Origin: Clostridia bacterium
Lineage (GTDB): Bacteria > Bacillota > Clostridia > Christensenellales > SZUA-584
Reading direction: 5' to 3'
DNA length: 64,000 bases
Assembly (NCBI GenBank): GCA_018648645.1
Contig: JABGQS010000013.1
Coordinates: forward strand, 2,994-66,993
This document shows positions 44,326 to 62,043 of this stretch, in pieces; positions within the stretch are counted from its first letter, which is position 1; each line of letters starts with the position of its first letter. The translations under genes were made by a program, and so were the position numbers. Below the pieces are notes generated by a model. That model worked only from the letters and a program-made list of their open reading frames with translations. It was not told where the DNA came from and searched no databases.

Positions 44326-44386
44326 TTATATTTCACTATCCGCAAACTTGCTTAGCTGTGTACGTGCCGGTGAGTGAGCAATCCGG

Positions 44387-44854: not shown

Positions 44855-45059
44855 ATCTTCGCCTCCAAAAGTTTATTATCTACTTGAATTATACTATAAT
44901 AGCAGCGAATTGTATATATTACAGAGTCTTAAAGCCCGCGGCGCTCTCTCTGTGGGCGTATTTGCGCGCACGCATACATCTTGCCCTCATTATATAGAGA
45001 CAAAGAAGTGCAAGTATGATATTATTTTTGTATAGTTAAACATCAAAGGGGAGCATCTT

Positions 45060-45542
45060 ATGACGGGCTGCACAAAGAATAAAAATCAATTGCTATATGA
45101 CGAGCTGGCTCACTTCATTGCCGATTTGCCGGAGCGCAAGGGCGCGCTTATTTCGGTGCTGCACAAAGCGCAGAGCATATTCGGATATCTGCCGCGCGAG
45201 GTTCAGGAGTTTGTGGCAGGTCAGTTAAAAATACCTGTATCAAAAGTGTACGGCGTTGTCGAGTTTTACGCATTTTTTACTATGAAACCAAAAGGGCAGA
45301 TCCCGATTTCAATCTGCCTAGGGACGGCGTGTTTTATAAAAGGCGCAAAGGACGTGCTCAGCGAACTAAAGCAGATTTTGTCAATCGATGTCGGCGAGGT
45401 AACGCCGGACGGCAGGTTTTCAATCGACACGCTGCGGTGCGTAGGCACGTGCGCAATGGCGCCGGTAATTATGATTGACGAAAAAGTTTACGGCAATGTC
45501 GAGCGCAAAGACGTAAAAAAGATTATTCGCGAGCACCAATAG
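45060..45542 (+). CDS. NuoE/HydC/FdsG-like [2Fe-2S] thioredoxin-fold subunit
   Basis: AAGGGGAG RBS. Cys ligands CLGTAC ... CVGTCAMAP. Confidence 0.9.
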   Translation: MTGCTKNKNQLLYDELAHFIADLPERKGALISVLHKAQSIFGYLPREVQEFVAGQLKIPVSKVYGVVEFYAFFTMKPKGQIPISICLGTACFIKGAKDVLSELKQILSIDVGEVTPDGRFSIDTLRCVGTCAMAPVIMIDEKVYGNVERKDVKKIIREHQ

Positions 45543-45551
45543 GGAGCAGCT

Positions 45552-47048
45552 ATGGACGTTGTCACATCACTAAACAACATGACGTTTTACAAAAAGCAGC
45601 GGCGCATCGCGCTACGTAACTGCGGCGTTATCGACCCCGAAAATATCGACGAGTACATCGCATTCGACGGGTACAAAGCGCTCGCCACAGTGTTTGAGCA
45701 GCTGTCGCCCGACCAAGTGATTGATAACGTAAAACAATCTGGACTGCGAGGACGCGGAGGCGGCGGTTTCCCGACAGGGCGCAAGTGGGAGCTGGCAAGC
45801 GCGAAACAGTCGGACATCAAATACGTAATCTGCAACGCGGACGAAGGCGACCCCGGCGCTTTCATGGACAGGTCGATTCTCGAAGGCGACCCGCACAGCG
45901 TAATCGAAGCCATGACTATCTGCGGCTATGCCATCGGCGCAAACGAGGGCAAAATATACATCCGGGCGGAGTACCCGCTGGCGATTCACAGGCTGGAGAG
46001 GGCGATAGCCGACGCGAGGGAATACGGATTCATCGGCAAGAACTGCAACGGCAACGGCTTCGATTTCGACATCGAAATCAAGTACGGCGCAGGCTCGTTC
46101 GTGTGCGGCGAGGAAACGGCGCTCATCCGCTCGATGGAAGGCGAGAGGGGCGAGCCGACAATGCGACCTCCGTATCCTGCGGACGAAGGGTATTGGGGCA
46201 AGCCGACCAACGTTAACAACGTCGAAACGTTCGCAAACATCCCAAGCATAATACTAAACGGCGCGAAGTGGTTTGCCGACATTGGAACCGACAAATCAAA
46301 AGGCACAAAAGTGTTTTCACTCGCGGGCAAAGTCAATAACGTCGGGCTGATAGAAGTGCCGATGGGCATCACCCTGCGTGAAGTGATATACGACATCGGC
46401 GGCGGCATTGCGGGCGGCAAAGCATTCAAAGCCGTACAAACGGGCGGACCGTCAGGCGGGTGCCTCACGGCGGACGACCTTAACACCCCGATAGATTATG
46501 AAAACCTGCTGGCGGTGGGTTCAATGATGGGCAGCGGTGGCATGATCGTGATGGACGAAAGTGACTGCATGGTAGACTTTGCGAAATTCTACATGGAGTT
46601 TCTCGTGGAAGAATCGTGCGGAAAATGCACACCCTGCCGCGAGGGCACAAAGCGGCTGCACGAGCTGCTTGCAAAAATTACGCAGGGTGAAGCGGCTTTA
46701 AAAGACTTGCAAACCATACGGCAGTTGTGCGAAGTCGTCAAAGACTCGTCTCTTTGCGGTCTCGGGCAAACAGCACCCAATCCTGTTCTTTCCACGATGA
46801 CAAAGTTCAGCAAGGAGTATCTTGCGCACATCACAGACCATAAATGTCCCGCAGGCAAGTGCACGGCTTTGCTGCGTTTCAGCGTTGATGAGGGCAACTG
46901 CACTGGCTGCACGCTCTGTAAAAAAGCGTGCCCGACGCAAGCAATAACCGGCGAGGTCAAGCAAGTTCATTACATAGAGCAGAGCAAATGCATACGTTGC
47001 GATGCGTGCTATAAAGTCTGCAAATTTGACGCAATCATAAAGAAGTAG
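45552..47048 (+). CDS. NuoF/HydB/FdsB-like NAD(P)H- and FMN-binding subunit with a C-terminal 2x[4Fe-4S] ferredoxin domain
   Basis: AGGGAG RBS. Motifs [29 protein letters not shown]-terminal [12 protein letters not shown] and [12 protein letters not shown]. Confidence 0.9.
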
Positions 47049-47058
47049 GAGAGCCGAT

Positions 47059-49752
47059 ATGGGCACAGTGAACATCACGATAAACGACAAGCAAATAAAA
47101 GCGCAGCTCGGCAGCAGCGTGCTTAGCGCCGCCGCAAAGAACGGCATCCATATTCCCGCACTGTGCGACAACGAGCTGTTGGACGCCAAAAACGGTGCAG
47201 CCTGCCGAATCTGCGTGGTGGAGATTGACGGACGCAAAACTCTGTCGCCCTCCTGCGCAACGGCGGTAAGCGAGGGTATGGGTATCCGTACCGACACCGA
47301 CAGAGTAATCAAAACCCGCAAAATGCTTCTCGAGCTTATCATAGCGAACCATCCGCTCGATTGCGATACATGCGAGAAGAACAATCGCTGCGCATTGCAA
47401 ACTTACTGCTCCGACTACGGAGTAGAGGATTCAAGATTCGCAGGCGGCGAGACCAAGAATTACGCTCCCGACACCAGCAACAAGTTCTACGACTACGACG
47501 CGAACAAGTGCATACTGTGCGGCAACTGCACACGGGTCTGTGGCGAGCTTCAAGTAAACGGCGCTATCGGGCGCGCAGGCAGAGGCTTCGAAACACGCGT
47601 AGCTGCTGCGTTCGACGAGTCTCTGGACAAATCGGTTTGCGTTTCCTGCGGCAACTGCGTATCGGCATGCCCTGTGGACGCATTGCTGCCAAAGCCAAAA
47701 GGTAAACGGCGCTCGTCCGAAACCGGAAAAGTGAAAACAACGTGTCCATATTGCGGCGTCGGCTGCCAAATGAACCTAATTATCGATGACAATCACGTCA
47801 TAGATGTAGAGCCGGTAAATGGCCTCGCCAACCGCGGTCTGCTTTGCGTGAAAGGCAAGTTCGGCATGGAGTTTATCGACAAGCCGGACAGGTTGACGGT
47901 GCCGCTTATCAAGCGGAACGGCGAGTTTGTCGAGTCAACATGGGAGCAGGCACTAAGCCTTATCGCAGACAAAATCACCGATGTAAGAGACAAACACGGC
48001 GCGGATGCTATCGCAGGGCTTTCCTCCGCCAGAGTCACCAACGAGGAAAACTATCTGTTCCAAAAATTTATAAGAATGCTCGGCACAAACAATGTAGACC
48101 ATTGCGCGCGGTTGTGCCACGCGTCTACAGTCACGGGGCTTGGCACAACGCTCGGCAGCGGCGCCATGACAAACAGCAACGCCGAAATTCTCGGTGCCGA
48201 TGTAATACTCGTCAGCGGATCAAACACCACCAAAACGCATCCGGTTTTGGGCTCATTCATGAAGCAGGCGCAAACGCGCGGCGCAAAACTCATCGTCATC
48301 GAGCCGCGCAGAATCGAGCTTGCACAAACGGCGGATGTGTTTTTGCAGATTAACCCGGGGACAAACGTCGCCGTGTACAACGCGATGATGCACGTCATTA
48401 TCGAAGAAGGACTCCAAGACAAAAACTATATCGCGCAGAAAACCGAGAACTATGACGCGCTTAAAGCGCTGGTTGCGCAGTGCCCGCCCGAAATCGCTGC
48501 AAAAATCTGCGACGTACACGCGGACGATATACGAGCTGCTGCGCGGCTGTACGCAAGCGCAGACAAAGCGGGCATATTCTACAGCATGGGCGTCACCCAG
48601 CACACGAGCGGCACGGACGGCGTCAAGAGCGTCAGCAACTTAGCGCTGCTGTGCGGTAACGTTGGTATCGAGTCAGGCGGCGTCAACCCACTGCGCGGAC
48701 AAAACAACGTGCAGGGCGCTTGCGACATCGGCGCGCTTCCAAACGTGTTCACAGGCTATCAAAAAGTTACCGACGAGCAGGCAAGGGCTAAATTTAGCAA
48801 GGCGTGGGGAGCCAAGCTGTCCGACAAAAACGGACTTACGCTAACCGAAATTATCCGAAAGAGCGGCGAAGGCGACATCAAATTCCTGTACATCATGGGC
48901 GAAAATCCGATGGTTTCCGACCCCGATTTAAACCACGTAGAGCAAGCTCTAAATGACAGCGAATTCATTGTTGTGCAGGACATCTTTATGACGGAAACAA
49001 CGGCGTTTGCCGATGTGATTCTTCCCGCCACTTCGTTTGCAGAAAAGGACGGAACATTCACTAACACAGAGCGCAGGGTACAGCGCGTGCGCAAAGCGAT
49101 AGAACCGATAGGACAAAGTAAAGCTGATTGGCAGATTATCATGGCGTTGATGAGCAAAATGGGTCTTGCGCAAACCTACAATCACCCAAATGAAATCATG
49201 GACGAAATTTGCCAGCTTACACCGCTTTACGGCGGCATCAGCTTCGAGCGAATCGAGGACGAAGGTCTGCAGTGGCCGTGTCCCGATGCGTCGCACCCCG
49301 GCACGAAATATCTGCACAAAGACAAAATCGCACGCGGCAAAGGGCTTTTCGCACCCGCGCCGTACGTGCCCAGCGACGAACTTCCGGACAGCGAGTACCC
49401 GTTCTATTTCTCCACAGGTCGTATACTGTATCACTATCACACCGCTACCATGACTAAACGGGTGGAGGGAATCAGAAAGATGTTTCCCAAATCGTTTGTG
49501 CAGATTCATCCGAAGGACGCAGACAAACTCAGCATAAGAAACGGTGACAAACTAATCGTTGCGTCTCGGCGCGGAGAGGTGACGACCACCGCTAAAGTCA
49601 CCGACATGGTCAAGCAAGGGCTGCTGTTTATGCCGTTCCACTTTGCTGACGGACCTGCAAACATGCTAACGAACCCCGCACTCGACCCGGTTGCAAAGAT
49701 ACCCGAGCTGAAAGTTTGCGCTGCAAAAATCAAAAAAGTATCGCAGACTTGA
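47059..49752 (+). CDS. fdhA: Formate dehydrogenase alpha subunit (Mo/W-bisPGD, Cys-type, with NuoG-like N-terminal Fe-S domains)
   Basis: AGGAGAG RBS. Motifs CRICVVE, HPLDCDTCEKNNRC, CILCGNCTRVC, CVSCGNCVSACP, TTCPYCGVGCQ. Active-site region VDHCARLCHAST uses a TGC codon (48115-48117) where Sec-type enzymes have TGA. Confidence 0.9.
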   Translation: MGTVNITINDKQIKAQLGSSVLSAAAKNGIHIPALCDNELLDAKNGAACRICVVEIDGRKTLSPSCATAVSEGMGIRTDTDRVIKTRKMLLELIIANHPLDCDTCEKNNRCALQTYCSDYGVEDSRFAGGETKNYAPDTSNKFYDYDANKCILCGNCTRVCGELQVNGAIGRAGRGFETRVAAAFDESLDKSVCVSCGNCVSACPVDALLPKPKGKRRSSETGKVKTTCPYCGVGCQMNLIIDDNHVIDVEPVNGLANRGLLCVKGKFGMEFIDKPDRLTVPLIKRNGEFVESTWEQALSLIADKITDVRDKHGADAIAGLSSARVTNEENYLFQKFIRMLGTNNVDHCARLCHASTVTGLGTTLGSGAMTNSNAEILGADVILVSGSNTTKTHPVLGSFMKQAQTRGAKLIVIEPRRIELAQTADVFLQINPGTNVAVYNAMMHVIIEEGLQDKNYIAQKTENYDALKALVAQCPPEIAAKICDVHADDIRAAARLYASADKAGIFYSMGVTQHTSGTDGVKSVSNLALLCGNVGIESGGVNPLRGQNNVQGACDIGALPNVFTGYQKVTDEQARAKFSKAWGAKLSDKNGLTLTEIIRKSGEGDIKFLYIMGENPMVSDPDLNHVEQALNDSEFIVVQDIFMTETTAFADVILPATSFAEKDGTFTNTERRVQRVRKAIEPIGQSKADWQIIMALMSKMGLAQTYNHPNEIMDEICQLTPLYGGISFERIEDEGLQWPCPDASHPGTKYLHKDKIARGKGLFAPAPYVPSDELPDSEYPFYFSTGRILYHYHTATMTKRVEGIRKMFPKSFVQIHPKDADKLSIRNGDKLIVASRRGEVTTTAKVTDMVKQGLLFMPFHFADGPANMLTNPALDPVAKIPELKVCAAKIKKVSQT

Positions 49753-49763
49753 AGGAGAGTCCC

Positions 49764-50534
49764 ATGGACGTGACCAAACAGTTTGATATAATTAATTATT
49801 CGGGCGGCGAACTTGAGTCGGTCGCCGACAGCGTGGTGGTCGAATACTCTTTAACGGTTTTTTTGAACGGAGATGAACTCGTCACAATGCTGTGCACACC
49901 AAAATCGCTGCAAAGCCTTGTGGTTGGCTTTCTTTACTCAGAAGGAATAATCGAATCGTTTTCGCAGATTTCGGACATTTTTATATGCCACAAGGACGGC
50001 ATTGCGCTCGTCACGCTGACAAAAAAGCGCATGAAAGCAATTGGGGATATCGACTTTAGAAAAACGATCACCAGCGGCTGCGCAAGCGGCAAGTCTGTCG
50101 AGAATGTATCAGCGGCGGACTATAAGAAAATCGAGACAACCATCAAGATAGACCAGCTCAAAGTTTTAGAGCTCATCAAACAGTTCAATAAAAAATCGGA
50201 AATATTCCTCAAAACGGGGGGTGTGCACAGTTGCGCATTGTGCTCGCAGGACGAGATTATTCTATTCGAAGAAGATATCGGGCGCCATAACGCGCTGGAA
50301 AAAATCCTCGGACAAGCATTGCAGGACAACATTGACCTAAGCGACAAGATGATACTCACATCCGGGCGGATATCCAGCGAGATAATCAAAAAAGCGGCAA
50401 AGCGGCGCATTCCTGTCGTGGTGTCAAGATCAGCGCCGACGGATGCAGCTATCGACCTGGCTAAATCGCTCGGCATCACGTTGATAGGGTTCGCCAGAGG
50501 AGCGCGGATGAACATATACACGCAATATCCATAA
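49764..50534 (+). CDS. fdhD: FdhD/FdsC-type formate dehydrogenase accessory sulfurtransferase
   Basis: GAAGGAGAG RBS, then ATG 49764. Motifs EDIGRHNALEK, TSGRISSE, VVVSRSAPT. Confidence 0.85.
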   Translation: MDVTKQFDIINYSGGELESVADSVVVEYSLTVFLNGDELVTMLCTPKSLQSLVVGFLYSEGIIESFSQISDIFICHKDGIALVTLTKKRMKAIGDIDFRKTITSGCASGKSVENVSAADYKKIETTIKIDQLKVLELIKQFNKKSEIFLKTGGVHSCALCSQDEIILFEEDIGRHNALEKILGQALQDNIDLSDKMILTSGRISSEIIKKAAKRRIPVVVSRSAPTDAAIDLAKSLGITLIGFARGARMNIYTQYP

Positions 50535-50682
50535 AAGCGTTTACCGCATTTGCTACGCAGGGAAAGTCAACTTAATTTTACAATTTATCATACTTTTGTG
50601 CTATATACCCGGCGGTAATAAAATATACAATAATATCATATGAAAACAAAACGAACACAAAACGTGAAAGGGAACTGTACTT

Positions 50683-51012
50683 ATGAAAATTAGCATTGAG
50701 AAAAACGTTGTAAATCTTGTGCCTGAAAGCACACACGAAAAGGCAGAGCTTGAAGCGCTGTGGAGACTAATGATCGACTGCAACGACCAAAGCAGAAAAA
50801 TGGTGCCGATTGGCGAATTTGTCCCGGCAAAGAATAACTCCGGCGCATCATTTCATATTGAAGGTCTGCCGCAGACAAAGCAGGAGTATACCGCAATTGC
50901 TGTAGATGAAGACAGCAGATGCTACTGTGCAACCTGCAACAACTTTGTGGATGTTAAAAAGGGATCGCCCATACCGCTGTGCTGCGGCAAATTGATGGAA
51001 GTCATAGACTAA
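50683..51012 (+). CDS. Hypothetical protein with a C-terminal desulforedoxin-like Cys4 motif
   Basis: AAAGGGA RBS. The C-terminus CATCNNFVDVKKGSPIPLCCGKLMEV matches the Dx/Dfx-N pattern CxxC-x14/15-CCGxxM. The N-terminal ~75 aa match nothing I recognise. Confidence 0.6.
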   Translation: MKISIEKNVVNLVPESTHEKAELEALWRLMIDCNDQSRKMVPIGEFVPAKNNSGASFHIEGLPQTKQEYTAIAVDEDSRCYCATCNNFVDVKKGSPIPLCCGKLMEVID

Positions 51013-51096
51013 TCTATCTGGTAAGCAAAGCGGATTCATGACGAAACCGATAGAGCGTTTACGTTTAGTTAAAGTATCGGGCTTTTTGATTCATTA

Positions 51097-51155
51097 GCAA
51101 CCAAATACATGTTGCTGTTCATATAGGATAGCAGCATGTTTTTTTTGTTGGTTGC
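51097..51155. terminator. Bidirectional terminator hairpin between convergent genes
   Basis: Outer stem GCAACCAA / TTGGTTGC, inner stem ACATGTTGCTG / GCAGCATGT, with a T8 run on the + strand. Confidence 0.65.
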
Positions 51156-51182
51156 AACTGCTGTCGCAATAGCTGAGGGAGC

Positions 51183-51515
51183 CTACTCAGTACCAACCAG
51201 CACATCCCCGTCCTGTGTTTTGACGGGATAAGCGATTGCGTCACCCACCTTAAATTTGATGAAAGCCAGTTTGCCTCCGTGCACAGCTTTGCCCGTTCTC
51301 ACATCGAACGCAGACCCGTGACGCGGACATACGATGTTGCCGCCATTTAGATTACCGTCCGAGAGTGAACCACCCATGTGAGGACACTTGTTATCAAGGG
51401 CATAATATGCACCGTCCAGCTTTGCCAGCATCAGCGTTTTGCCGTTTACAACGACCTTCATTTTGCCGCCGTCACTCAACTCTGACGCACTGTCAATTTT
51501 CACATATTCCATCAT
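51183..51515 (-). CDS. Small soluble Rieske [2Fe-2S] ferredoxin-like protein
   Basis: AGGAAGAGGTG RBS, then ATG 51515 (the listed ORF is longer). Rieske boxes CPHMGGSL and CPRHGSAF. Confidence 0.85.
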   Translation of the reverse strand: MMEYVKIDSASELSDGGKMKVVVNGKTLMLAKLDGAYYALDNKCPHMGGSLSDGNLNGGNIVCPRHGSAFDVRTGKAVHGGKLAFIKFKVGDAIAYPVKTQDGDVLVGTE

Positions 51516-51652
51516 AATGCACCTCTTCCTTATTAATGGTTCTATCATAACACTAATACCAATATGACACAAAACGCGAGTGCCAATATATATCTGTAAT
51601 GCCAATATCAAAGCAAGTTTATGATTTTTTTGTGGTCCTTATGACTTTTATG

Positions 51653-51681
51653 TTGACAATTTGGCGTGTGTACATTATCAT
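51653..51681 (+). promoter_or_regulatory. Sigma-70-type promoter for the hydrogenase operon
   Basis: TTGACA, 17 nt, TATCAT. About 210 nt upstream of ATG 51892. Confidence 0.5.
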
Positions 51682-51740
51682 GATAAATGAGCTCAAACAC
51701 AACAGCATTTACACTTTGTCTGTTTTGAGTTTAGGCATAA

Positions 51741-51758
51741 ATGTGAAATATTTCACAT
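51741..51758. promoter_or_regulatory. Perfect 18-bp palindrome matching the Rex operator (TTGTGAA-N4-TTCACAA), which also fits a CRP/FNR-type TGTGA-N6-TCACA box
   Basis: ATGTGAAATATTTCACAT is an exact reverse-complement palindrome. It lies between the predicted promoter and the first hydrogenase gene. Confidence 0.6.
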
Positions 51759-51891
51759 GAACCGTACGACAAAAAGACCTTTTTTTACAGCACGTGATGA
51801 AACCACCGACACCAAGGAATTTTACTTTAGAGATTTAAAAAAACATAGTGATTTAATGAACTGACACATACACAATATAGCGAGGTAGAAT

Positions 51892-52926
51892 ATGGAACAG
51901 TATCTTATTCTTTTCAAAAACGATTTCGACGACTTTGTTGAAAGGCTGGCTAAGATCCAAAAACTTGTTGCGCCTGTTAAGCGCGGCAGCAAGAGCTTTG
52001 CGTTCGATGAGGTGACCGCTGCGGAGGACGTGTCGCTGAACTACATACCGACAATACTCCCGCCCAAAAAGTATTTTATGCCGCAAAACGAAACCATCGT
52101 AGAATACGAGAAAAAGCAGAACAAGTGGGAAGCCATACTTTATTCTGAGGCAATCACGCTCTTTGGCGTGCACACGTGCGATCTTGCAGGCATTCAATGC
52201 CTCAACCTCGTGTTTTCTGACCGACCAAACGACGTCCACTACATTATCAGAAAGAAGAGAATACTTATCATCGGGCTCGAGTGCAACGATTACTGCGACG
52301 AATACGCCACCTGCGGATTGATGGACAACCACAACGCAAACGGCGGCTACGACCTGCTTATGACAGAGCTAGAGGACCGATTCGTCATTCATGTAAACAC
52401 TGTAGACGGCGAAGAGCTGATGGGCAAACTCGCAATGGTAAAGCCGGCTGACGCAGAGTCTATGACAATGCTCAACAAAATGCGCAACAAGAAAAGAGAA
52501 GTATTCCAGCCGGAAATCGATATAGAGCGCAAGGAGCTAAAGCCCCTGTTCGAAGAGTCATTCCAAGCCGAGGTTTGGGACAGTATTCACGAGAAATGCC
52601 TCTCATGCGGCAACTGCACAAACGTGTGCCCAACCTGCTATTGTTATGACGTTGAGGACGAAATTGACCTTGATTTTAACAAAGGCAAGATGGTACGCAA
52701 GTGGGACTCCTGCCAAAGCAGGCCGTTTGCAATGATCTCGGGCGGCGAGAACTTCCGGCCGGAGCGCGGCGGGCGGCAGCGCCACAGATACATGCGCAAA
52801 TTCAACTACCCATTCGAAAAATACAACCGTTATTTTTGCACAGGCTGTGGTCGGTGCTCAAGAACGTGTATGGCAAAAATCAACCTTAAAGAAACAATAG
52901 AAACATTAATTGAAGAGAAAAAATAG
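51892..52926 (+). CDS. hyhB: [NiFe] hydrogenase group-3b-type beta subunit (AsrA-like Fe-S protein)
   Basis: Motifs CLSCGNCTNVCPTCYCYD and CTGCGRCSRTC. First gene of a beta-gamma-delta-alpha order. Confidence 0.8.
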   Translation: MEQYLILFKNDFDDFVERLAKIQKLVAPVKRGSKSFAFDEVTAAEDVSLNYIPTILPPKKYFMPQNETIVEYEKKQNKWEAILYSEAITLFGVHTCDLAGIQCLNLVFSDRPNDVHYIIRKKRILIIGLECNDYCDEYATCGLMDNHNANGGYDLLMTELEDRFVIHVNTVDGEELMGKLAMVKPADAESMTMLNKMRNKKREVFQPEIDIERKELKPLFEESFQAEVWDSIHEKCLSCGNCTNVCPTCYCYDVEDEIDLDFNKGKMVRKWDSCQSRPFAMISGGENFRPERGGRQRHRYMRKFNYPFEKYNRYFCTGCGRCSRTCMAKINLKETIETLIEEKK

Positions 52927-52961
52927 GAACGCAACATTCCAAGAATACATCGAGGTGTAAA

Positions 52962-53798: not shown

Positions 53799-53828
53799 TT
53801 TCAGCAAAATGATAGGAGTGTATCATTT

Positions 53829-54578: not shown

Positions 54579-54580
54579 TC

Positions 54581-55912
54581 ATGGCAAGATCAGTTAATGT
54601 AGATGTTAAATATCTGACGCGCGTTGAAGGACACGGAAACATCGTCGTCAATGTAAAAGACGGAATAGTCGAAGAATGTAGGCTCGATATCGTTGAAGCA
54701 CCACGCTTTTTCGAAGCGATGCTGCGAGGTCGCTCCATTTTCGAAGCCCAGCATATCACCTCAAGAATATGCGGTATCTGTGCATGCGGTCACACAATCT
54801 CGTCCATTGCAGCTGCAGAGGATGCTATTGGCTTCACGCCGTCCGAGCAAACCACCAAGCTGCGCAAAATACTTCTCTATCAAGAGATGCTAGACAGCCA
54901 CATACTGCATATCTATCTGCTTGTAGCGCCCGATTTGCTGGGTGTGCCAAGCTTTGTACCTTTGATAGATACTCACGGCAACGTGGTTAAACGCGCGCTG
55001 CGCATGAAAAAAGCGTGCAACGATGTCTGCGCAGTTCTTGCAGGCAGACACATACACCCGATTTCTTCAATCGTCGGCGGGTTCACCAAAATTCCCGGCG
55101 AAAAAGAGCTCGACGCTATGCTCGATATTCTTTACGATATGCGTCCGGATATGGATTCGACAGTAGAGCTTATCAAAACTTTGGCACCGGCCATTCCCGT
55201 GTTCGAACGCGAAACAGAATACGTCGCTTTGGTCACCGATGATGACGAGTACCCAACGCTCGAAGGCGATTTGGGTTCTTCCGACGGTCTGCGTCTCGAC
55301 AAAAGCGAGTACTTAAAAATAACGAACGAGTTTGTAATGCCGCACTCATCGGCAAAGCACGCAAAAGCCAGCAGAAAATCGTACATGACGGGCGCACTAG
55401 CGCGCTTCAATATCAATTCCGAAAAACTGAACCCGAAAGCCAAAGCTGTTGCAGACGCGCTTGGCATGAAGCCGCCAATCATCAACCCATATATGAACAC
55501 CGCGGCGCAATTGGTAGAGTGCATGCACTACATGGAAGAGTCTATCGCGATTCTCGAAGACCTTAAGGCAAACGGCACCGACCAAAGCGAAGCGATTACT
55601 GTCGGGCTTAACGAGCGTAATGATATAAAAGTTAATAAGGGTCTTGGCGTAGGCGCAGTTGAAGTACCGCGCGGTCTGTTGTTCCACAGCTACGAAGTGG
55701 ACGAAACCGGCAAAATCGAGAACGCAAACTGCATCATCCCGACCAGCCAAAACGTCAATAACATCGAACACGATATGAGCAAATTGATACACGAGATTCT
55801 CGACAAACCGGACGAGGAAATCACGTTGATGTTCGAAATGCTCGTACGTGCGTACGACCCGTGCATTTCGTGCAGCGCACATTTCTTGGATGTAGAGTTC
55901 ATCAATCGCTGA
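54581..55912 (+). CDS. hyhL: [NiFe] hydrogenase large (alpha) subunit
   Basis: L1 motif RICGICACGH and L2 motif DPCISCSAH, followed by a 9-aa tail (FLDVEFINR) as expected for endopeptidase processing. Confidence 0.9.
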   Translation: MARSVNVDVKYLTRVEGHGNIVVNVKDGIVEECRLDIVEAPRFFEAMLRGRSIFEAQHITSRICGICACGHTISSIAAAEDAIGFTPSEQTTKLRKILLYQEMLDSHILHIYLLVAPDLLGVPSFVPLIDTHGNVVKRALRMKKACNDVCAVLAGRHIHPISSIVGGFTKIPGEKELDAMLDILYDMRPDMDSTVELIKTLAPAIPVFERETEYVALVTDDDEYPTLEGDLGSSDGLRLDKSEYLKITNEFVMPHSSAKHAKASRKSYMTGALARFNINSEKLNPKAKAVADALGMKPPIINPYMNTAAQLVECMHYMEESIAILEDLKANGTDQSEAITVGLNERNDIKVNKGLGVGAVEVPRGLLFHSYEVDETGKIENANCIIPTSQNVNNIEHDMSKLIHEILDKPDEEITLMFEMLVRAYDPCISCSAHFLDVEFINR

Positions 55913-55914
55913 CC

Positions 55915-56463
55915 ATGCAAAGGGGAAACCGACACGACAATATTGAAAAGTCTTTGATTGCGCCACTGCAAAAACTCGACCGGTACGGACTGCTGTCGGG
56001 GCGTTGCAATGGCGCTTTTGTAATGGCGGGAAACACGTTTCGCAGCGACGACGGCGTTGGCCCATACATCGCGCAACAGCTCGCACCCATACTTGACAAC
56101 CATCCCGCGCTTCGCCTTGTCGATGCCCACACCAACCCGGAAAACCACATCGACGAGTTGATTGCTTTTTCTCCCGCGCTCGTGGTCTTTATAGACGCCG
56201 CGAACTTTGGAGGGCTGCCGGGTGAGTTCATACTCATAGAAGACGAAGCGGCATTTGCGGCAAGCAGTGCAAGCACGCACACGATACCGCTTGGGGTCAT
56301 CGCGTCATTGATCAAATCGGAATGCGGCTGTGCTGTGATGTACATCGGCATACAAGCGGAGAATTTCTCTCTTGGAGAAACGCTTTCAGAAAGTGTGAAA
56401 AAGGCAGCAGATTTGTTTGTAAAAGCAATCCGCACCAGATTGTCGGGTACGCAACATGCATGA
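55915..56463 (+). CDS. Hydrogenase maturation endopeptidase (HycI/HoxW/FrhD family)
   Basis: Core AFVMAGNTFRSDDGVGPYIA...VFIDAA...STHTIPL. ATG 55915 lies 2 nt after the hyhL stop and gives a ~35-aa N-terminal extension. The alternative ATG 56023 would remove the first beta-strand. Confidence 0.75.
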   Translation: MQRGNRHDNIEKSLIAPLQKLDRYGLLSGRCNGAFVMAGNTFRSDDGVGPYIAQQLAPILDNHPALRLVDAHTNPENHIDELIAFSPALVVFIDAANFGGLPGEFILIEDEAAFAASSASTHTIPLGVIASLIKSECGCAVMYIGIQAENFSLGETLSESVKKAADLFVKAIRTRLSGTQHA

Positions 56464-56797
56464 GTACGCAGTAACGGAAAACATACTAAAGATTGTTATA
56501 GAGCAAGCAGCCAAAGCAGACGCCAAAAAGGTGCTCGCGATACGTCTCACAATCGGCGCGCTTTCCGGCTTCGAGCAAGACTGCATCCAAATGTACTATG
56601 AGGAGCTTTCAAAGGATACGATTGCGGCGGGTGCAAAGCTGATTGTAACAAAGGTCGAGGCACAGCTTCATTGCCGCAACTGCGACACAGATTTTGCCCT
56701 GACACACACCGACTACAACTGCCCAACGTGCGGAGTGGCGGGCGTGTATAACGATGACGGTCGCGATTTTATGATTGAGAGCATCGAGATCGAATGA
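56456..56797 (+). CDS. hypA: Hydrogenase nickel-insertion protein HypA
   Basis: N-terminal MHE; Zn site CRNCDTDF...CPTCG. Confidence 0.9.
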   Translation: MHEYAVTENILKIVIEQAAKADAKKVLAIRLTIGALSGFEQDCIQMYYEELSKDTIAAGAKLIVTKVEAQLHCRNCDTDFALTHTDYNCPTCGVAGVYNDDGRDFMIESIEIE

Positions 56798-56809
56798 GAG
56801 GATATATTC

Positions 56810-57478
56810 ATGGAGATTAAAGTTCAAAAGAACATAATGAACCGCAACAACGAGATTGCGGCAGAAAATCGCCAACGATTTATTGACGACGGCATATTTA
56901 CAGTCAACGTTCTGGCGTCACCGGGTGCGGGCAAAACGAGCGTGCTGCTAAAGATTATCGAGACAATCGACGGCAAAATCGACATGGCGATTCTCGAGGG
57001 CGACATTGCGTCGCAGATAGACACCGACAAAATCCGCAAGCGCGGCATCCCCGTCATGCAAATCAACACGGGCGGCGGCTGCCACCTCGACGCCAACATG
57101 ATACGCGTATCGCTGAGCGAGCTAAAGCCCGCAAAAAACGCCATTTTCCTCATCGAGAACGTCGGCAACCTCGTGTGCCCGTCTTCTCATGACCTCGGCG
57201 AAAACATGAAGCTACTCATCGCCAGCGTCCCCGAAGGTCACGACAAACCGTACAAATACACATCCATGTTTGCAGCAGCAGACGCGATAATACTCAACAA
57301 GACCGACCTGCTGCCGTATATTGATTTTGATAAAGAGGTTTTCTACAAAGGCGTGCATGCACTAAAACCGGACGTGCCGGTGTTCGAGATGTCATGCAAA
57401 ACCGGCGACGGCGTAGCGGACTTTGTTAATTGGCTAAAGGATAAAAGAAAACTATGGCAGACTCAGCATACAAAATAG
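56810..57478 (+). CDS. hypB: Hydrogenase nickel-incorporation GTPase HypB (no His-rich N-terminus)
   Basis: P-loop ASPGAGKTS, metal site GGGCHLDA, and NKTDL. Confidence 0.9.
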   Translation: MEIKVQKNIMNRNNEIAAENRQRFIDDGIFTVNVLASPGAGKTSVLLKIIETIDGKIDMAILEGDIASQIDTDKIRKRGIPVMQINTGGGCHLDANMIRVSLSELKPAKNAIFLIENVGNLVCPSSHDLGENMKLLIASVPEGHDKPYKYTSMFAAADAIILNKTDLLPYIDFDKEVFYKGVHALKPDVPVFEMSCKTGDGVADFVNWLKDKRKLWQTQHTK

Positions 57479-59727
57479 ATATTACAGGGATTGTTCAGGG
57501 GGTGGGTTTCCGGCCTTTCATATATCGGCTCGCAAAGAAATTCGAGCTTAACGGCTATGTCACTAACACGTTGATGGGCGTGCACGTTTATGTCGAGGGC
57601 GCTCAGCATGCACTCGACAACTTTGCGAAGTCAATCGAGCCACAGAGTCCAAACATTTCGTCCATCGAGGATATGCAAATCCTTAAAGTAGCCCCCATTG
57701 GCGCAAAATCCTTCACAATAGAAAAAAGCGAAAAACTCTCAGGAAACGAGATTTTTATCTCGCCAGATTTGTCAACTTGCGCCGACTGTAAAAGCGATAT
57801 TCTGGACGAAAGCAACCGCCGATATCGCTATCCTTTCACCACCTGCACATACTGCGGACCCAGATACTCGATTATCCGCGACGTTCCATATGACAGGAGC
57901 AGCACCGTCATGGATGAATTCACAATGTGCCCGGCTTGCCAAAGCGAGTATGACGACCCAAATGACAGGCGCTACCACAGCCAGCCAAACGCCTGCGCAG
58001 TTTGCGGACCAAAGCTCTCTTTGTATAACACCAAAGACAAAGCATGTGTGCAAGTCGGCGATGGCGACTATATTTCGCTTATCGCAGATGCGCTGAAACG
58101 CGGACAAATCGTCGCGCTAAAGGGTCTTGGGGGCTACCAGCTTTGCTGCGACGCAAGCAACTCGGACGCGCTCGCAGCTCTGCGAGAGCGAAAGCATCGC
58201 GAAGCAAAACCGTTCGCCGTCATGTGCAAAGACGTTTTGGCAGCGCAAAACCATTGCCACATCTCGCCCGAAGAAACGGAATTGCTACTCAGCCCGCACA
58301 ACCCAATCGTGCTTATGGAAAAACGGAAAGCAAGCACAATCGCAGACAACGTGTCAAGCGACAACGATTATCTCGGCGTCATGCTTCCCTACACACCCAT
58401 TCACATTCTGCTTATGGAGATAGTGGACACATTGGTGATGACCAGCGCCAATATATCGGACATGCCAATCATCAGCGACGATGAGGATGCCAAAGCAAAT
58501 CTTGCGGATATCGCCGACTATATATTGATGCACAACAGAAAAATTCACCGCAGAGTAGACGACTCGGTGTACAAAGTAACCAACGAATTACCGCAGGCAA
58601 TCAGAAGAGCGCGGGGATACGCGCCCGGCATTGTGAAAGCAGACAAATTGAAAACGCCTATTCTGGCGGTTGGCGCAGAGCTTAAAAACACCTTTGCAGT
58701 CAGCCGCGGCAGCAACATCTTCGTCAGCCCGCACATCGGCGATTTGAAATACGCGCAAACGTACGAGTTGTTCAAGCAAAGCATTCACGAGTTCAAACAG
58801 CTTTTTGGCGTATCGCCGAAAGTGGTCGCGTGCGATATGCACCCGGGTTACCTGTCAACAAAATGGGCGAGCGAATCCGGGCACCGGGTGATAAAAGTAC
58901 AGCACCACCATGCGCATTTGGCAGCCACCCTTCTCGAGTACGGCATAATGGACGAGCCTGCAATCGGCTTCTGCATGGACGGCACGGGCTACGGTACCGA
59001 CGGCGCAATTTGGGGCTGCGAAGCCGGCATCGTCTCTTTCAAGCAGTTCAAGCGCATCTCTCACTTAGGTTATTTCGCTCTTCCCGGAGGCGACATATGC
59101 GCCAAAGACGTATACAGATGCGGCGTTTCGCTGATTAATCAAGCGGTAGGTCGTGTGGATGCAAACCAATACGAATTTCTTCAAGATATCGCCTCGCAAA
59201 ACATACAAGTTATTCAAGAGATGATAGAGCAAAACATCAACACCGTGCCGACCTCCAGCATGGGCAGACTCTTCGACGGCGTCTCCAGCATCATTGGGCT
59301 GGGTAGCTCTTCGCTTTACGAGGCCGGCGCCGCGATACGGCTGGAAAGCGTCGCAGACAAGAGTATTACCGATGCATATACAGTCTCGCTCCGTGAATAT
59401 GACGGGCTTCATTTGTGGATGTGGGAGAGCATGATTGGCGAAATACTGCTGGATTTAGAAGAAAAGACGCCAATCGGTACGATAAGCGCAAAATTCCACA
59501 ACAGTGTGATAGAATACATTATAAAAATGACACAGATTATAAGCCGGCAGAGCGGAATTACAAAAGTGGCTTTGTCAGGCGGCGTTTTCAACAACTCGCT
59601 CATCAGCGACAGGGCAGAAGCGCTGCTCAGGGGAAACGGGTATGAAGTATACCTTCAAAGAACTTTCCCCGCAGGCGACGGCGGGCTGTGTATCGGACAA
59701 CTAATAGCAGCAAACGAGGTGATTTAA
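57454..59727 (+). CDS. hypF: Carbamoyltransferase HypF
   Basis: Acylphosphatase domain GIVQGVGFRPFIY. Zn fingers CADCKSD..CTYCGPRYS and CPACQSEY..CAVCGP. YrdC and Kae1-like domains. Overlaps hypB by 25 nt. Confidence 0.9.
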   Translation: MADSAYKIDITGIVQGVGFRPFIYRLAKKFELNGYVTNTLMGVHVYVEGAQHALDNFAKSIEPQSPNISSIEDMQILKVAPIGAKSFTIEKSEKLSGNEIFISPDLSTCADCKSDILDESNRRYRYPFTTCTYCGPRYSIIRDVPYDRSSTVMDEFTMCPACQSEYDDPNDRRYHSQPNACAVCGPKLSLYNTKDKACVQVGDGDYISLIADALKRGQIVALKGLGGYQLCCDASNSDALAALRERKHREAKPFAVMCKDVLAAQNHCHISPEETELLLSPHNPIVLMEKRKASTIADNVSSDNDYLGVMLPYTPIHILLMEIVDTLVMTSANISDMPIISDDEDAKANLADIADYILMHNRKIHRRVDDSVYKVTNELPQAIRRARGYAPGIVKADKLKTPILAVGAELKNTFAVSRGSNIFVSPHIGDLKYAQTYELFKQSIHEFKQLFGVSPKVVACDMHPGYLSTKWASESGHRVIKVQHHHAHLAATLLEYGIMDEPAIGFCMDGTGYGTDGAIWGCEAGIVSFKQFKRISHLGYFALPGGDICAKDVYRCGVSLINQAVGRVDANQYEFLQDIASQNIQVIQEMIEQNINTVPTSSMGRLFDGVSSIIGLGSSSLYEAGAAIRLESVADKSITDAYTVSLREYDGLHLWMWESMIGEILLDLEEKTPIGTISAKFHNSVIEYIIKMTQIISRQSGITKVALSGGVFNNSLISDRAEALLRGNGYEVYLQRTFPAGDGGLCIGQLIAANEVI

Positions 59728-59955
59728 ATGTGTTTGGCAGCACCGGCAAGAATTACAAAAATAATTGACAAGGACAACGCGTTTGTAGATATCAGAGGCG
59801 TTACGCAAAAAACCAACATTTCTCTGGTCGATATCAATGTCGGCGACTGGGTGTTGATTCACGCAGGCATCGCTATCAACACCATCGACGAAGAGCTTGC
59901 GGCCGATGCGCTCAAGATTATAGACGAATTGGATGTGGACGCCAATGAACTTTGA
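59728..59955 (+). CDS. hypC: Hydrogenase assembly chaperone HypC
   Basis: N-terminal MCLAAPARI. ATG immediately follows the hypF stop. Confidence 0.9.
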   Translation: MCLAAPARITKIIDKDNAFVDIRGVTQKTNISLVDINVGDWVLIHAGIAINTIDEELAADALKIIDELDVDANEL

Positions 59956-61042
59956 CCAATTCAGAACGCCCGGCGAGGGCATAGAAAAACTCAAACACCT
60001 GATTGCCAAAACGGCAGACAGAGACATAACAATTATGGAAGTGTGCGGAACACACACAATGGCGCTTTTCCGTCACGGCATCAGAGACATGATTCCGACC
60101 GGCATCAAATTGCTTTCGGGTCCCGGATGCCCGGTTTGCGTAACGGAGAATTCTGTAATAGACAAAATGATATGGCTGGCGGGTCAGAGTGATGTCATAG
60201 TCGCAACCTTTGGCGACATGCTTCGAGTGCCGGGGAGCTACAGTTCGCTGAATCTGCAAAAAGCAAACGGTGCAAATGTGCAGGTAGTATACTCGCCGCT
60301 TTTGGCGTTAGAGCTTGCCAAAAAGCATCCGGACAAAAAGGTCGTATTCATCGCAGTCGGTTTCGAGACAACAATACCGGCTATCGCGGTCGCACTTAAA
60401 AGCGCCAAACAGCGCGGCATCAACAATTTCTTCGTACTGTGTGCGCACAAAACGGTTCCAATAGCGCTCGAAGCAATTGCGGGCATGGACAACAATGTAG
60501 ACGGTCTGCTTCTGCCCGGGCACGTCTCCTCAATTATCGGCGCAAACGCGTACCGCTTTCTGGCAGAGCAATATTCACTTCCGGGTGTCATCGCCGGGTT
60601 CGAGCCGCTCGATTTATTGAAAGCGATATACATGATTGTAGACATGATTACGAGCTCCAAAATTGCGATTGTAAACGCGTACGAGCGCGTTGTGTCTGAC
60701 ACCGGCAACATAAAAGCGCAGCAGGTCATTGCGCAGGTTTTCGAGCCTTGCGACGCATCATGGCGGGGGATGGGGACAATCGCCGGTTCAGGGCTTAAGC
60801 TTAACGAGGATTACGTAGCGTTTGATATAGAAAGCATCATGCGCATCGACATCGCGCCGCCGATAGAGCCCGCTGGCTGCCTGTGCGGGCAGATACTGTG
60901 CGGAACCAAAACGCCGCCCGACTGCGCCCACTTCGCAAGCAAATGCGTGCCCGAAAACCCTGTCGGACCGTGCATGGTCTCGACCGAAGGAACGTGCGCA
61001 GCATATTACAAATATAGAAACATCGGAGGCAGCGACTCATGA
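59945..61042 (+). CDS. hypD: Hydrogenase maturation protein HypD
   Basis: Motifs EVCGTHTMA, GPGCPVCV, and a C-terminal Cys cluster. The start is ATG 59945 or 59933; both overlap hypC. Confidence 0.9.
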   Translation: MNFDQFRTPGEGIEKLKHLIAKTADRDITIMEVCGTHTMALFRHGIRDMIPTGIKLLSGPGCPVCVTENSVIDKMIWLAGQSDVIVATFGDMLRVPGSYSSLNLQKANGANVQVVYSPLLALELAKKHPDKKVVFIAVGFETTIPAIAVALKSAKQRGINNFFVLCAHKTVPIALEAIAGMDNNVDGLLLPGHVSSIIGANAYRFLAEQYSLPGVIAGFEPLDLLKAIYMIVDMITSSKIAIVNAYERVVSDTGNIKAQQVIAQVFEPCDASWRGMGTIAGSGLKLNEDYVAFDIESIMRIDIAPPIEPAGCLCGQILCGTKTPPDCAHFASKCVPENPVGPCMVSTEGTCAAYYKYRNIGGSDS

Positions 61043-62043
61043 AAAACGAGCTGATTCTGCTCGCTCACGGAAGCGGCGGCAAACAAATGCGAAAATTGAT
61101 TGAAGGATTTGCGGGTAAATATTTCTCTAACCCTATTCTAGACAAAATGAACGATTTTGCGCAGATAGACGGTGGCAGCAAGACAATCGTTTCCACCGAT
61201 TCGTTTGTAATAAAACCATACAAATTCCCGGGCGGAGACATAGGCAAATTAGCGGTCTGCGGCACGGTCAACGACGTTGCCTGCAGCGGTGCAGATGTGA
61301 AATACTTAACGCTTGCTCTCATCATCGAGGAGGGTTTGCCGATTGCCGACCTTGAGGACATATGCAAGTCCATCAAAAAGGCAAGCGAGGAAGCCGGCGT
61401 GCTGGTTATCGCGGGCGATACAAAGGTGGTAGAGCACGGCGCGGCAGACGGCATATACATCAACACGACGGGTATAGGGATAAAGAGCATTGACGCGGAC
61501 ATCGGCGGCGAGTTTGTGCAGCCCGGCGACAAAATCATAATCAACGGCAACATAGGCGATCACGCCGCAGCAATTCTTGCATGTCGAGAAGGGCTTTCGT
61601 TCACAACGCCGAGCGTAAGCGACTGCGCGCCCCTAAACGGAATGGTGAAGGAGCTACTTGCACAGTGCAGCAATGTGCGATGCATGAGAGACCCGACAAG
61701 AGGCGGCGTAGCAACGGTAGCAGGTGAGATTGCCCGCCAGTCTAAAGTCGGGATAAATATCTTCGAGCAGGCTTTACCGATAGAGCAAAGCGTGCTCGGT
61801 GCGTGCGAGCTTTTCGGTATGGACCCGCTCTACATGGCAAACGAAGGCAAGCTGCTGATTTTTATCGCCGCAGAGGAAGCAGACAAAGCGATAGAAGTTC
61901 TGCGAGGGAATAAGTACGGCAAAAACGCTGCCATTATCGGCGAGGTCACGGACAAGAAGCAGGGTGTAGTGCTGCAAACCGCTATCGGCAGCAGCAGAAT
62001 TTTGGACGAGTTGACCGGAGAGATACTGCCAAGAATATGCTAG
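61039..62043 (+). CDS. hypE: Hydrogenase maturation protein HypE
   Basis: ATGA overlap with hypD. PurM-like fold. The C-terminal ...LPRIC carries the Cys that bears thiocyanate. Confidence 0.9.
   Translation: MKNELILLAHGSGGKQMRKLIEGFAGKYFSNPILDKMNDFAQIDGGSKTIVSTDSFVIKPYKFPGGDIGKLAVCGTVNDVACSGADVKYLTLALIIEEGLPIADLEDICKSIKKASEEAGVLVIAGDTKVVEHGAADGIYINTTGIGIKSIDADIGGEFVQPGDKIIINGNIGDHAAAILACREGLSFTTPSVSDCAPLNGMVKELLAQCSNVRCMRDPTRGGVATVAGEIARQSKVGINIFEQALPIEQSVLGACELFGMDPLYMANEGKLLIFIAAEEADKAIEVLRGNKYGKNAAIIGEVTDKKQGVVLQTAIGSSRILDELTGEILPRIC

Follow-up and report, generated by a model that had tools for sequence, protein, structure and literature searches.

A putative type 1 Fdh-Bfu formate dehydrogenase and a group 3b [NiFe] hydrogenase in neighbouring operons of a Clostridia bacterium

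The window analysed here is a stretch of 64,000 nucleotides from contig JABGQS010000013.1 (assembly GCA_018648645.1) of an organism catalogued as 'Clostridia bacterium'. On its forward strand it carries a gene cluster for a formate dehydrogenase (FDH) and, a short distance downstream, a cluster for a group 3b [NiFe] hydrogenase with its maturation proteins. Both enzymes belong to already known enzyme families. A first-pass annotation, made from the sequence alone, had joined them into one soluble formate/H2 module that exchanges electrons with NAD(P)(H). The analysis presented below points instead to two separate neighbouring operons, each probably encoding a soluble redox-balancing enzyme in its own right, with an FDH of the design predicted for type 1 Fdh-Bfu enzymes. 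The features on which this reading is built are the following, in window coordinates.

45060-45542, plus strand: bfuC / nuoE-like gene for a [2Fe-2S] subunit of 160 amino acids (aa); PF01257, 1.6e-48
45552-47048, plus strand: bfuB / nuoF-like gene for an FMN- and NAD(P)H-binding subunit of 498 aa; Complex1_51K, NADH_4Fe-4S, and Fer4 at residues 445-495
47059-49752, plus strand: fdhA, Cys-type FDH catalytic subunit of 897 aa with Mo/W-bis-pyranopterin guanine dinucleotide; TIGR01591, 875 bits (cut-off 666)
49764-50534, plus strand: fdhD, sulfurtransferase for FDH cofactor maturation; TIGR00129, 218 bits (cut-off 141), and PF02634, 2.2e-78
50683-51012, plus strand: Cys-rich open reading frame (ORF) of 109 aa, without a family
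51107-51149, plus strand: intrinsic-terminator-like element, a hairpin at 51107-51139 with a 14-bp stem, followed by a T-run
51183-51548, minus strand: gene for a Rieske-type [2Fe-2S] ferredoxin; PF00355, 1.3e-17
51653-51681, plus strand: sigma-70-like promoter candidate TTGACA-17-TATCAT, a consensus match only
51892-52926, plus strand: hyhB, AsrA-like Fe-S beta subunit; sulfhyd_HydB 245 bits, ShyB 238 bits
52962-53798, plus strand: hyhG, AsrB-like FAD- and NAD(P)-binding [2Fe-2S] gamma subunit; FAD_binding_6, NAD_binding_1, DHODB_Fe-S_bind
53829-54578, plus strand: hyhS, small (delta) subunit; PF01058, sulfhyd_HydD 162 bits, ShyD 159 bits
54581-55912, plus strand: hyhL, [NiFe] large (alpha) subunit assigned to group 3b; sulfhyd_HydA 285 bits, ShyA 264 bits
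55915-56463, plus strand: hydrogenase maturation endopeptidase; TIGR00072, 94 bits (cut-off 47)
56456-56797, plus strand: hypA
56810-57478, plus strand: hypB
57454-59727, plus strand: hypF
59728-59955, plus strand: hypC, read from the sequence (MCLAAPARI...)
59933-61042, plus strand: hypD
61039-62043, plus strand: hypE

Protein families were assigned by Pfam and NCBIfam profile searches, and structural relatives by score ranking against the PDB. Gene context was compared across 116 fetched loci in total, among them 80 metagenome loci with related FdhA proteins (L023-L102) and a distant set of 16 related genome loci on the hydrogenase side. The ORF map and the profile searches place every listed FDH, hydrogenase and hyp gene on the plus strand; the genes, their order, coordinates and spacing, the L1 and L2 motifs of the hydrogenase and the 897-aa Cys-type FDH alpha subunit were all found as first annotated. 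The gene identities and family assignments can be taken as correct with near certainty.

Within the FDH block, the genes are separated by 9 bp (nuoE-nuoF), 10 bp (nuoF-fdhA) and 11 bp (fdhA-fdhD), and fdhD is called as a gene of 256 aa in public gene calls on identical contigs. The distance from fdhD to hyhB is 1357 bp, and the hyh-hyp block that follows shows gaps of 0-35 bp or gene overlaps. The size of the spacer had been given correctly as about 1.3 kb, but the Cys-rich ORF and the minus-strand Rieske ferredoxin gene within it had been missed. A search of the whole window with Rfam at gathering thresholds gave no match, including no molybdenum cofactor or other riboswitch upstream of either operon.

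The two enzymes and their relatives

The catalytic subunit FdhA contains the Pfam domains Fer2_4, NADH-G_4Fe-4S_3, Fer4, Molybdop_Fe4S4, Molybdopterin and Molydop_binding, corresponding to a cluster set of one [2Fe-2S], one His-ligated [4Fe-4S], two [4Fe-4S] and the pterin-proximal cluster. Its active site reads HCARLCHAST, with Cys353-His354, and an in-frame TGA is absent. The best solved relatives are the alpha subunit of the tungsten FDH of M. extorquens (772 bits) and FdsA of R. capsulatus (731 bits). By sequence, the subunit is assigned as FdsA-like and Cys-type, with a NuoG-like N-terminus.

The first-pass annotation had extended this likeness to the entire FdsGBA enzyme of Cupriavidus and Rhodobacter. 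The comparison stands for the gene order and for the alpha subunit, but not for the beta and gamma subunits, which are assigned to the HydB/HydC (Bfu) type rather than to the FdsB/FdsG type, with a C-terminal 2x[4Fe-4S] domain on the beta subunit. Against the PDB, the NuoF-like subunit scores 734 bits with A. woodii HydB, 721 with S. ovata StnB and 713 with A. mobile NiFe-HydB, followed by NfnB (676), T. kivui HydB (644) and T. maritima HydB (599), but only 414 and 370 bits with FdsB of C. necator and R. capsulatus, respectively. The NuoE-like subunit, which retains Cys86, Cys91, Cys127 and Cys131, reaches 141 bits with HydC of T. kivui and 140 with that of A. woodii, compared to 74-80 with FdsG. 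Its score of 118.6 on the FdsG equivalog model NF004638 remains under the cut-off of 198, and the HoxE and NuoE models score higher.

The residues of the BfuB-like subunit that bear on electron transfer are well preserved. The B1 ligands are present (Cys356, Cys359, Cys362 and Cys402), the Zn/B2 site is intact (C339, H426, C432 and C437), and all eight B3/B4 cysteines of the C-terminal 2x[4Fe-4S] domain are kept at positions 450-490. The B3/B4 and Zn/B2 residues are also kept in two relatives of 83-84% identity (P0122 and P0123). What the subunit lacks is the N-terminal thioredoxin-like (B5) domain of about 100 residues, as its residue 6 aligns with residue 105 of A. woodii HydB; since nuoE ends 9 bp before the nuoF-like start, coding room for this domain upstream is excluded. 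In a search of 5.8 billion proteins, the 498-aa form was represented by only three proteins (100%, 84% and 83% identity), and the next relatives were HydB/HndC proteins of 590-600 aa from Clostridia, at 70-72% identity.

The Bfu family and its "type 1 Fdh-Bfu" class, in which the pterin site resides in BfuA, were defined by Schut et al. 2022 (PMC9304861). As of that study, Nfn was the only type 1 enzyme characterised, and type 1 Fdh-Bfu was predicted and uncharacterised. Non-bifurcating homologues, namely R. capsulatus Fds, Nqo, soluble NiFe hydrogenase and the S. wolfei hydrogenase, are without B2-B5 (PMC9304861). The minimal bifurcating site consists of B1-FMN-C1, the B5 site can hold Zn, and deletion of B3/B4 in T. 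kivui HydABC abolishes bifurcation (Li et al., PMC11829005). In characterised Bfu enzymes, the C-terminal 2x[4Fe-4S] domain is required to reach ferredoxin (PMC11829005, PMC10021017). The N-terminal thioredoxin domain contributes to a ferredoxin trap, as shown for Csac NfnABC (PMC11829005), and T. kivui HydB with this domain truncated retains about one tenth of the bifurcating activity (Katsyv et al., PMC10021017). Because its flavin module is of the HydB/HydC type with B3/B4 and the Zn/B2 site, the FDH of the window is better read as a candidate type 1 Fdh-Bfu.

Among the 80 related FdhA loci, the order nuoE-nuoF (with the ferredoxin domain)-fdhA(-fdhD) is common, and the NuoF-like partner takes four forms. 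It may be long, with both extra domains; N-terminally short with B3/B4, as in the window (for example, L040, L046, L047, L050, L059 and L061); short and without B3/B4, with the His/Cys Zn-site motif kept (L053, L057, L062, L063 and L089); or fused to NuoE (L083, L084 and L086). The form found in the window is therefore not unique. Gene order varies across these loci as well, from nuoE-nuoF-fdhA to nuoF-fdhA-(fdhD)-nuoE, and a separate NuoG-like gene is inserted before fdhA in L029, L040, L043, L044, L059 and L061. The closest FDH relatives, of 83-84% identity, carry an ECF/CbiQ-type transporter, small proteins with an Oxidored_molyb domain and MobB before the operon (L104, 1-4000; L105, 1145-6178) and a MobA-like gene after it; no such cofactor-supply genes flank the FDH of the window.

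The hydrogenase was assigned to group 3b by score ranking and architecture, in agreement with the earlier classification. Against the PDB, HyhL scores 246-250 bits with group 3b enzymes (T. kodakarensis 5yxy, 250; P. furiosus SHI 9nez, 248), compared to 156-173 with group 3c (5odc and 9sw2; Mvh 173), 150 with the Bfu-type NiFe enzyme, 96-138 with group 3a and 129 with group 3d. The NCBIfam ranking is similar, with HydA (285) and ShyA (264) above VhuA (158) and FrhA (151). The beta, gamma and delta subunits also find their best matches in SHI/SHII: the sole PDB match of HyhB is the beta subunit of P. furiosus SHI (9nez_B, 222 bits), the best match of HyhG is its gamma subunit (9nez_C, 206 bits), and HyhS, with 13 Cys, scores higher on the NCBIfam models sulfhyd_HydD (162) and ShyD (159) than on VhuG (111).

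HyhL contains the L1 motif RICGICACGH at 62-71 and the L2 motif DPCISCSAH at 426-434, with a C-terminal extension of 9 aa after His434. The gene order mirrors the beta-gamma-delta-alpha order of archaeal sulfhydrogenases, and the AsrA/AsrB-like character of the beta and gamma subunits was recovered, both as first proposed. The cut-offs of the archaeal SHI/SHII equivalogs (NF040832 and others) are not reached by any subunit, with scores of 285 against 880 for alpha, 245 against 750 for beta, 219 against 650 for gamma and 162 against 500 for delta. This places the enzyme on a bacterial branch of group 3b, distinct from SHI and SHII orthologues.

The maturation set was rightly described as full, comprising the protease and hypABFCDE; the NCBIfam models TIGR00100, TIGR00073, TIGR00143, TIGR00075 and TIGR02124 all exceed their cut-offs. 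Relatives of 69-77% identity occur in Omnitrophota, Margulisiibacteriota/Saganbacteria, Elusimicrobia, Spirochaetota and Desulfobacteraceae, and group 3b enzymes were noted earlier in Margulisbacteria, Saganbacteria and others (PMC6349859). The hyhBGSL-protease core is kept across phyla without an FDH, and in 15 of the 16 genome loci compared the protease gene comes after hyhL. The hypABFCDE genes are appended to the hyh operon here and in an 80% relative (L021), and are absent in most distant relatives. In an 82% relative, the protease gene matches in two pieces and HycI is uncalled (L108, 4393-5129), while the sister contigs L109 and L110 are intact; this split may reflect a frameshift or an assembly error.

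The spacer and the conservation of the adjacency

The region between the two clusters begins with the Cys-rich ORF (50683-51012), whose C-terminus shows a CxC-x2-C...CC pattern. It has no Pfam or NCBIfam match; gene calls include it in five same-species contigs, and no other locus among the 116 fetched contains it. L104 has an ORF of 105 aa after its FDH genes, which was considered as a counterpart and proved unrelated by comparison. Because the Cys-rich ORF is placed between fdhD and the only strong terminator of the gap, it may be co-transcribed with the FDH genes, possibly as the last gene of their transcript. The terminator-like hairpin lies between the convergent Cys-rich ORF and Rieske genes; its 14-bp stem includes 5 G-C pairs and is followed by TTTTTTTTGTT.

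The Rieske gene on the opposite strand also matches Rieske_2 and Rieske_4 in Pfam and ferredoxin-subunit models in NCBIfam, and it is called as a protein of 110-121 aa in same-species contigs. There is no obvious oxygenase partner nearby. Outside the same-species contigs, it found one weak match only (30% identity), in L080, downstream of fdhA and on the opposite strand. Beyond this gene, the promoter candidate agrees with the consensus at 11 of 12 positions; it is the best site in the interval 44200-52000 and lies about 210 bp upstream of hyhB.

With the terminator-like hairpin, the Rieske gene on the opposite strand and the promoter candidate all placed between the clusters, the FDH and hydrogenase genes quite probably form two transcription units rather than the single formate/H2 unit first envisaged. 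The G+C content is 0.52-0.54 across the FDH genes and 0.49 across those of the hydrogenase, but only 0.43 at 50001-52000. This low value in the gap is consistent with a rearrangement or recombination seam that joined two operons.

The adjacency itself is genuine. By look-up, the identical HyhB protein was found on eight contigs, which come from JGI, ENA, NCBI and Logan assemblies, and the order fdhA-fdhD-ORF-Rieske (minus strand)-hyhB occurs in every one of them that reaches far enough, representing at least five separate samples or assemblies. The same junction in at least five independent assemblies means that it is a real feature of the species, not a chimera or an assembly artefact. Two further contigs, L017 (96% HyhL identity) and L103 (100% identity of the NuoF-like subunit and 99.97% nucleotide identity to the window), stop short of the junction and are uninformative on the adjacency. 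The HyhL search of genome contigs yielded no same-species genome, the best hit being 77% identical, and the context of close relatives was taken from exact-protein look-ups.

Conservation of the FDH-hydrogenase pairing had been put forward as a check on the joint module, and outside the species it was not found. In L021 (80% HyhL identity), an identical hyhBGSL-protease-hypABFCDE operon is present without an FDH, and the genes upstream encode an aldo-keto reductase, a URO-D-like protein and EamA. There is no FDH upstream in L106 (86%), where divergent ABC-transporter genes are located, or in L111 (82%), where a UPF0236 gene is found, and in L018 (79%) neither hyp genes nor an FDH lie nearby. 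On the FDH side, an 84% relative (L104) has nuoE-nuoF-fdhA-fdhD-mobA, after which come LacI, an aldehyde dehydrogenase and further genes, none of them for a hydrogenase. Likewise, hyh or hyp genes occur in none of the 80 FdhA loci, including none of the 37 with at least 4 kb downstream and none of the 30 with at least 6 kb upstream.

Among the 16 distant hyh loci, only L004 has fdhA-associated genes upstream. This locus (1-8410 of MEUE01000001.1, a Saganbacteria/WOR-1 metagenome-assembled genome) contains the end of an fdhA, a porin and a molybdate/tungstate-type ABC transporter (PBP, ABC+TOBE), and continues on the same strand with MoeA, MoaA, MoaC, a MOSC protein and a MogA/MoaB-like protein directly into hyhBGSL. 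A second locus, L007 (12682-20403, from a Spirochaetota metagenome-assembled genome), has NuoE/NuoF/NuoG-like genes downstream of its group 3b hydrogenase. These were considered as an FDH but belong to an [FeFe] hydrogenase (HydC, a HydB-GltD fusion and HydA) and an NfnAB-like pair. The HydB-GltD-like NADPH/FAD fusion has 1030 aa, and the region looks like a cluster of several redox-balancing enzymes.

With the pairing unconserved, and with a terminator-like hairpin, a gene on the reverse strand and a promoter candidate between the clusters, the favoured reading is that two independent operons came to lie side by side in this lineage, in a species-specific arrangement. A linkage limited to one species is no evidence for a dedicated formate/H2 unit.

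Proposed mechanism and competing explanations

In the preferred reading of two separate operons, we infer cofactor use, ferredoxin coupling, reaction direction and transcription units. Operon 1 (45060-50534, perhaps extending to the terminator at 51139) would encode a three-subunit formate dehydrogenase/CO2 reductase. Electrons would pass from the FdhA pterin site through the NuoG-like clusters to the HydB/HydC-type flavin module, with FMN, B1, C1, Zn/B2 and B3/B4. The most likely reaction of this enzyme would be 2 formate + NAD(P)+ + oxidised ferredoxin <-> 2 CO2 + NAD(P)H + reduced ferredoxin, and a plain NAD+-only reaction appears less likely. By its standard potential (-420 to -430 mV), formate is able to reduce both ferredoxin and NAD(P)+. 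Because the N-terminal thioredoxin-like domain is naturally absent, the efficiency of such coupling is uncertain.

Operon 2 (51892-62043), with its own candidate promoter, would encode the heterotetrameric group 3b hydrogenase, its protease and HypABFCDE. This enzyme would interconvert H2 and NAD(P)H through its FAD/NAD-binding gamma subunit. The FDH and the hydrogenase would then meet through the shared NAD(P)H pool, like any two such enzymes of one cell. By standard potentials, electron transfer from NAD(P)H (-320 mV) to H2 (-414 mV) runs uphill except at very low H2. If there is a joint direction, the more natural one is oxidation of H2 to give NAD(P)H by the 3b enzyme, followed by formation of formate from NAD(P)H and reduced ferredoxin.

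Several points weigh against this account. The BfuB-like subunit is without the N-terminal B5 domain, and the enzyme might not bifurcate; Schut et al. describe the thioredoxin-like domain as conserved in all Bfu enzymes (PMC9304861). The FDH reaction is an extrapolation within a class that was uncharacterised as of 2022 (PMC9304861). The promoter and the terminator are consensus matches only, and read-through from fdhD into hyhB may occur. In addition, L004 and a precedent in the Thermococci, where nfd operons neighbour sh operons, hint that FDH and group 3b genes meet more often than by chance.

The use of ferredoxin besides NAD(P) by the FDH is mildly favoured. The competing explanation, that the enzyme is a simple NAD+-dependent, non-bifurcating FDH of the FdsGBA type whose C-terminal ferredoxin-like domain is vestigial or an additional electron store, is rather unlikely. 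It would agree with the gamma-beta-alpha-fdhD gene order, with the FdsA-like alpha subunit (731-772 bits), with the missing B5 domain and with the related loci whose NuoF-like subunit has no ferredoxin domain (L053, L057, L062, L063 and L089). However, the 498-aa subunit preserves all eight B3/B4 cysteines together with the His/Cys Zn/B2 site, their retention in the 83-84% relatives P0122 and P0123 argues for selection over decay, and the bifurcating proteins HydB, StnB and NfnB are far closer to the beta subunit in sequence than FdsB is. The same B3/B4 domain on the ferredoxin side leaves the originally proposed exchange with NAD(P)(H) standing as such, but makes its exclusivity doubtful for the FDH.

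This bears directly on the dedicated soluble module, in which both enzymes would use NAD(P)(H) only and would run formate to NAD(P)H to H2, or H2-driven CO2 reduction. The clusters do lie on the same strand, 1.36 kb apart, in an arrangement stable across at least five same-species assemblies; nucleotide-binding domains are present in both HyhG and the NuoF-like FDH subunit, and L004 offers a second bacterial case of fdhA-associated genes directly before hyhBGSL. The nfd/sh neighbours of the Thermococci point in the same direction, with H2-dependent formate production reported for Thermococcales (Le Guellec et al. 2021, as cited in PMC10025317 and PMC8965080). Nevertheless, a module of this kind is improbable: the adjacency is missing in relatives of 80-86% identity and from every informative FDH locus (37 on the downstream side, 30 on the upstream side), the terminator, opposite-strand gene and separate promoter divide the clusters, and NAD(P) is probably not the sole partner of the FDH. 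Moreover, the step from NAD(P)H to H2 is uphill at all but very low H2, and the low potential of formate would be wasted.

A variant in which the FDH is a naturally minimised Bfu that still bifurcates, and forms with its group 3b partner a bacterial two-enzyme H2-dependent CO2 reductase or formate-to-H2 valve, is considered highly unlikely. In such a system, NAD(P)H would shuttle between the enzymes, and ferredoxin would supply or take up the additional low-potential electrons. Assembly of both enzymes into one physical complex with direct electron transfer, in the style of HDCR or the C. autoethanogenum Fdh-Hyt, is barely credible. Complexes of FDH and hydrogenase are known (PMC9304861, PMC8965080), and it is proximity only that would suggest one here; the known ones use [FeFe] hydrogenase modules and a single operon, whereas the two enzymes of the window each have a complete nucleotide-binding module as their own electron exit, are encoded in separated operons and occur independently in relatives.

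Significance, surroundings and known systems

Coupling of formate to both NAD(P) and ferredoxin, if the FDH indeed performs it, would make the enzyme an accessible bacterial representative of the predicted, uncharacterised type 1 Fdh-Bfu class. It would also provide a natural experiment on whether BfuB can do without its N-terminal domain in electron bifurcation. Should the minimised-Bfu variant be true, the locus would hold the smallest working BfuBC core and a bacterial counterpart of the Thermococci nfd-sh pairing. For now, the locus adds a new member to each of two well-populated enzyme families and opens no new question, with the truncated BfuB as a minor variant. There is also a lesson for annotation: a NuoE-NuoF-FdhA operon should not be named "NAD-dependent Fds-type" until the C-terminal ferredoxin domain of NuoF has been checked, and gene adjacency in a single species is weak evidence for a functional module.

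Elsewhere in the window, the region 7758-14102 encodes an AcrC-like acyl-CoA dehydrogenase, EtfB and a 397-aa EtfA, and, on the minus strand after EtfA, a 2-hydroxyacyl-CoA dehydratase D-component and a 555-aa protein with a dehydratase activase domain. It looks like a 2-hydroxyacid or acrylate-type fermentation module. The Bcd/EtfBA genes and the 2-hydroxyacyl-CoA dehydratase with its activase fit an anaerobic Firmicute host, and the assignment of the host to the Firmicutes agrees with its name. Sugar and trehalose metabolism is richly represented on the minus strand at 23892-25463 and 31236-35764, with zwf glucose-6-phosphate dehydrogenase, a GH65 glycoside hydrolase and a fused trehalose-6-phosphate synthase/phosphatase; the G+C content along the window is 0.41-0.53. 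Additionally, a 461-aa protein with an EF-hand motif and an FGE-sulfatase (formylglycine-generating enzyme-like) domain is encoded at 4345-5730 on the plus strand.

Among known systems, the FDH is compared most readily with the type 1 Fdh-Bfu predicted for Carboxydothermus hydrogenoformans (PMC9304861), with which it shares BfuC, a BfuB with the C-terminal 2x[4Fe-4S] domain and the Zn/B2 site, and a pterin-fused BfuA. It differs in that its BfuB is without the N-terminal B5 domain, which the family description treats as invariant. For the beta and gamma subunits, the nearest relatives of solved structure are the HydB and HydC modules of the HydABC [FeFe] hydrogenases of A. woodii (7Q4V), T. 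kivui (8A6T) and T. maritima (7P5H), and FMN, B1, C1, the Zn site and B3/B4 are conserved in the FDH of the window. The catalytic subunit of these hydrogenases is an H-cluster protein, whereas that of the window is a pterin FDH, and the N-terminal [2Fe-2S] domain of HydB is absent here.

The FdsGBA(C)D enzymes of R. capsulatus and C. necator (6TGA, 6VW7) have the same gamma-beta-alpha-FdhD/FdsC order, alpha architecture and Cys site. Unlike them, the FDH of the window has a beta subunit scoring 370-414 bits with FdsB against 599-734 with HydB-type proteins, and a gamma subunit under the FdsG cut-off. FdsB has an N-terminal extension and no C-terminal ferredoxin domain, while the reverse holds for the beta subunit of the window. 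FdsD was not found, the only small ORF after fdhD (50683-51012) having no Pfam or NCBIfam match, though no comparison aimed at FdsD was made. On the hydrogenase side, P. furiosus SHI (9NEZ) and T. kodakarensis Hyh (5YXY) share the beta-gamma-delta-alpha order and the L1 and L2 motifs, and each subunit finds its best match there.

The closest parallel to the pairing as a whole comes from the Thermococci, where nfd and sh operons are neighbours (PMC10025317). In T. onnurineus, Fdh3 (TON_0538-0543), a soluble NAD(P)/ferredoxin FDH, is encoded beside the group 3b operon of Sulf-I (TON_0534-0537) (PMC4463584, PMC8965080), and in purified form Fdh3 works with NADP+ and ferredoxin (PMC8965080). Disposal of reducing equivalents by H2-dependent formate production has been reported for Thermococcales by Le Guellec et al. 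2021, as cited in PMC10025317 and PMC8965080. The idea of a nucleotide-linked soluble FDH combined with a group 3b hydrogenase is therefore not new (PMC10025317, PMC8965080, PMC4463584). The parallel has its limits, as Fdh3 consists of FdhA, an unrelated NAD(P)-binding subunit and separate Fe-S proteins (PMC8965080), while the FDH of the window uses a NuoEF/HydBC module. Furthermore, the archaeal nfd and sh operons diverge from a shared intergenic region, whereas those of this bacterial host are co-oriented, with a terminator and a reverse gene between them.

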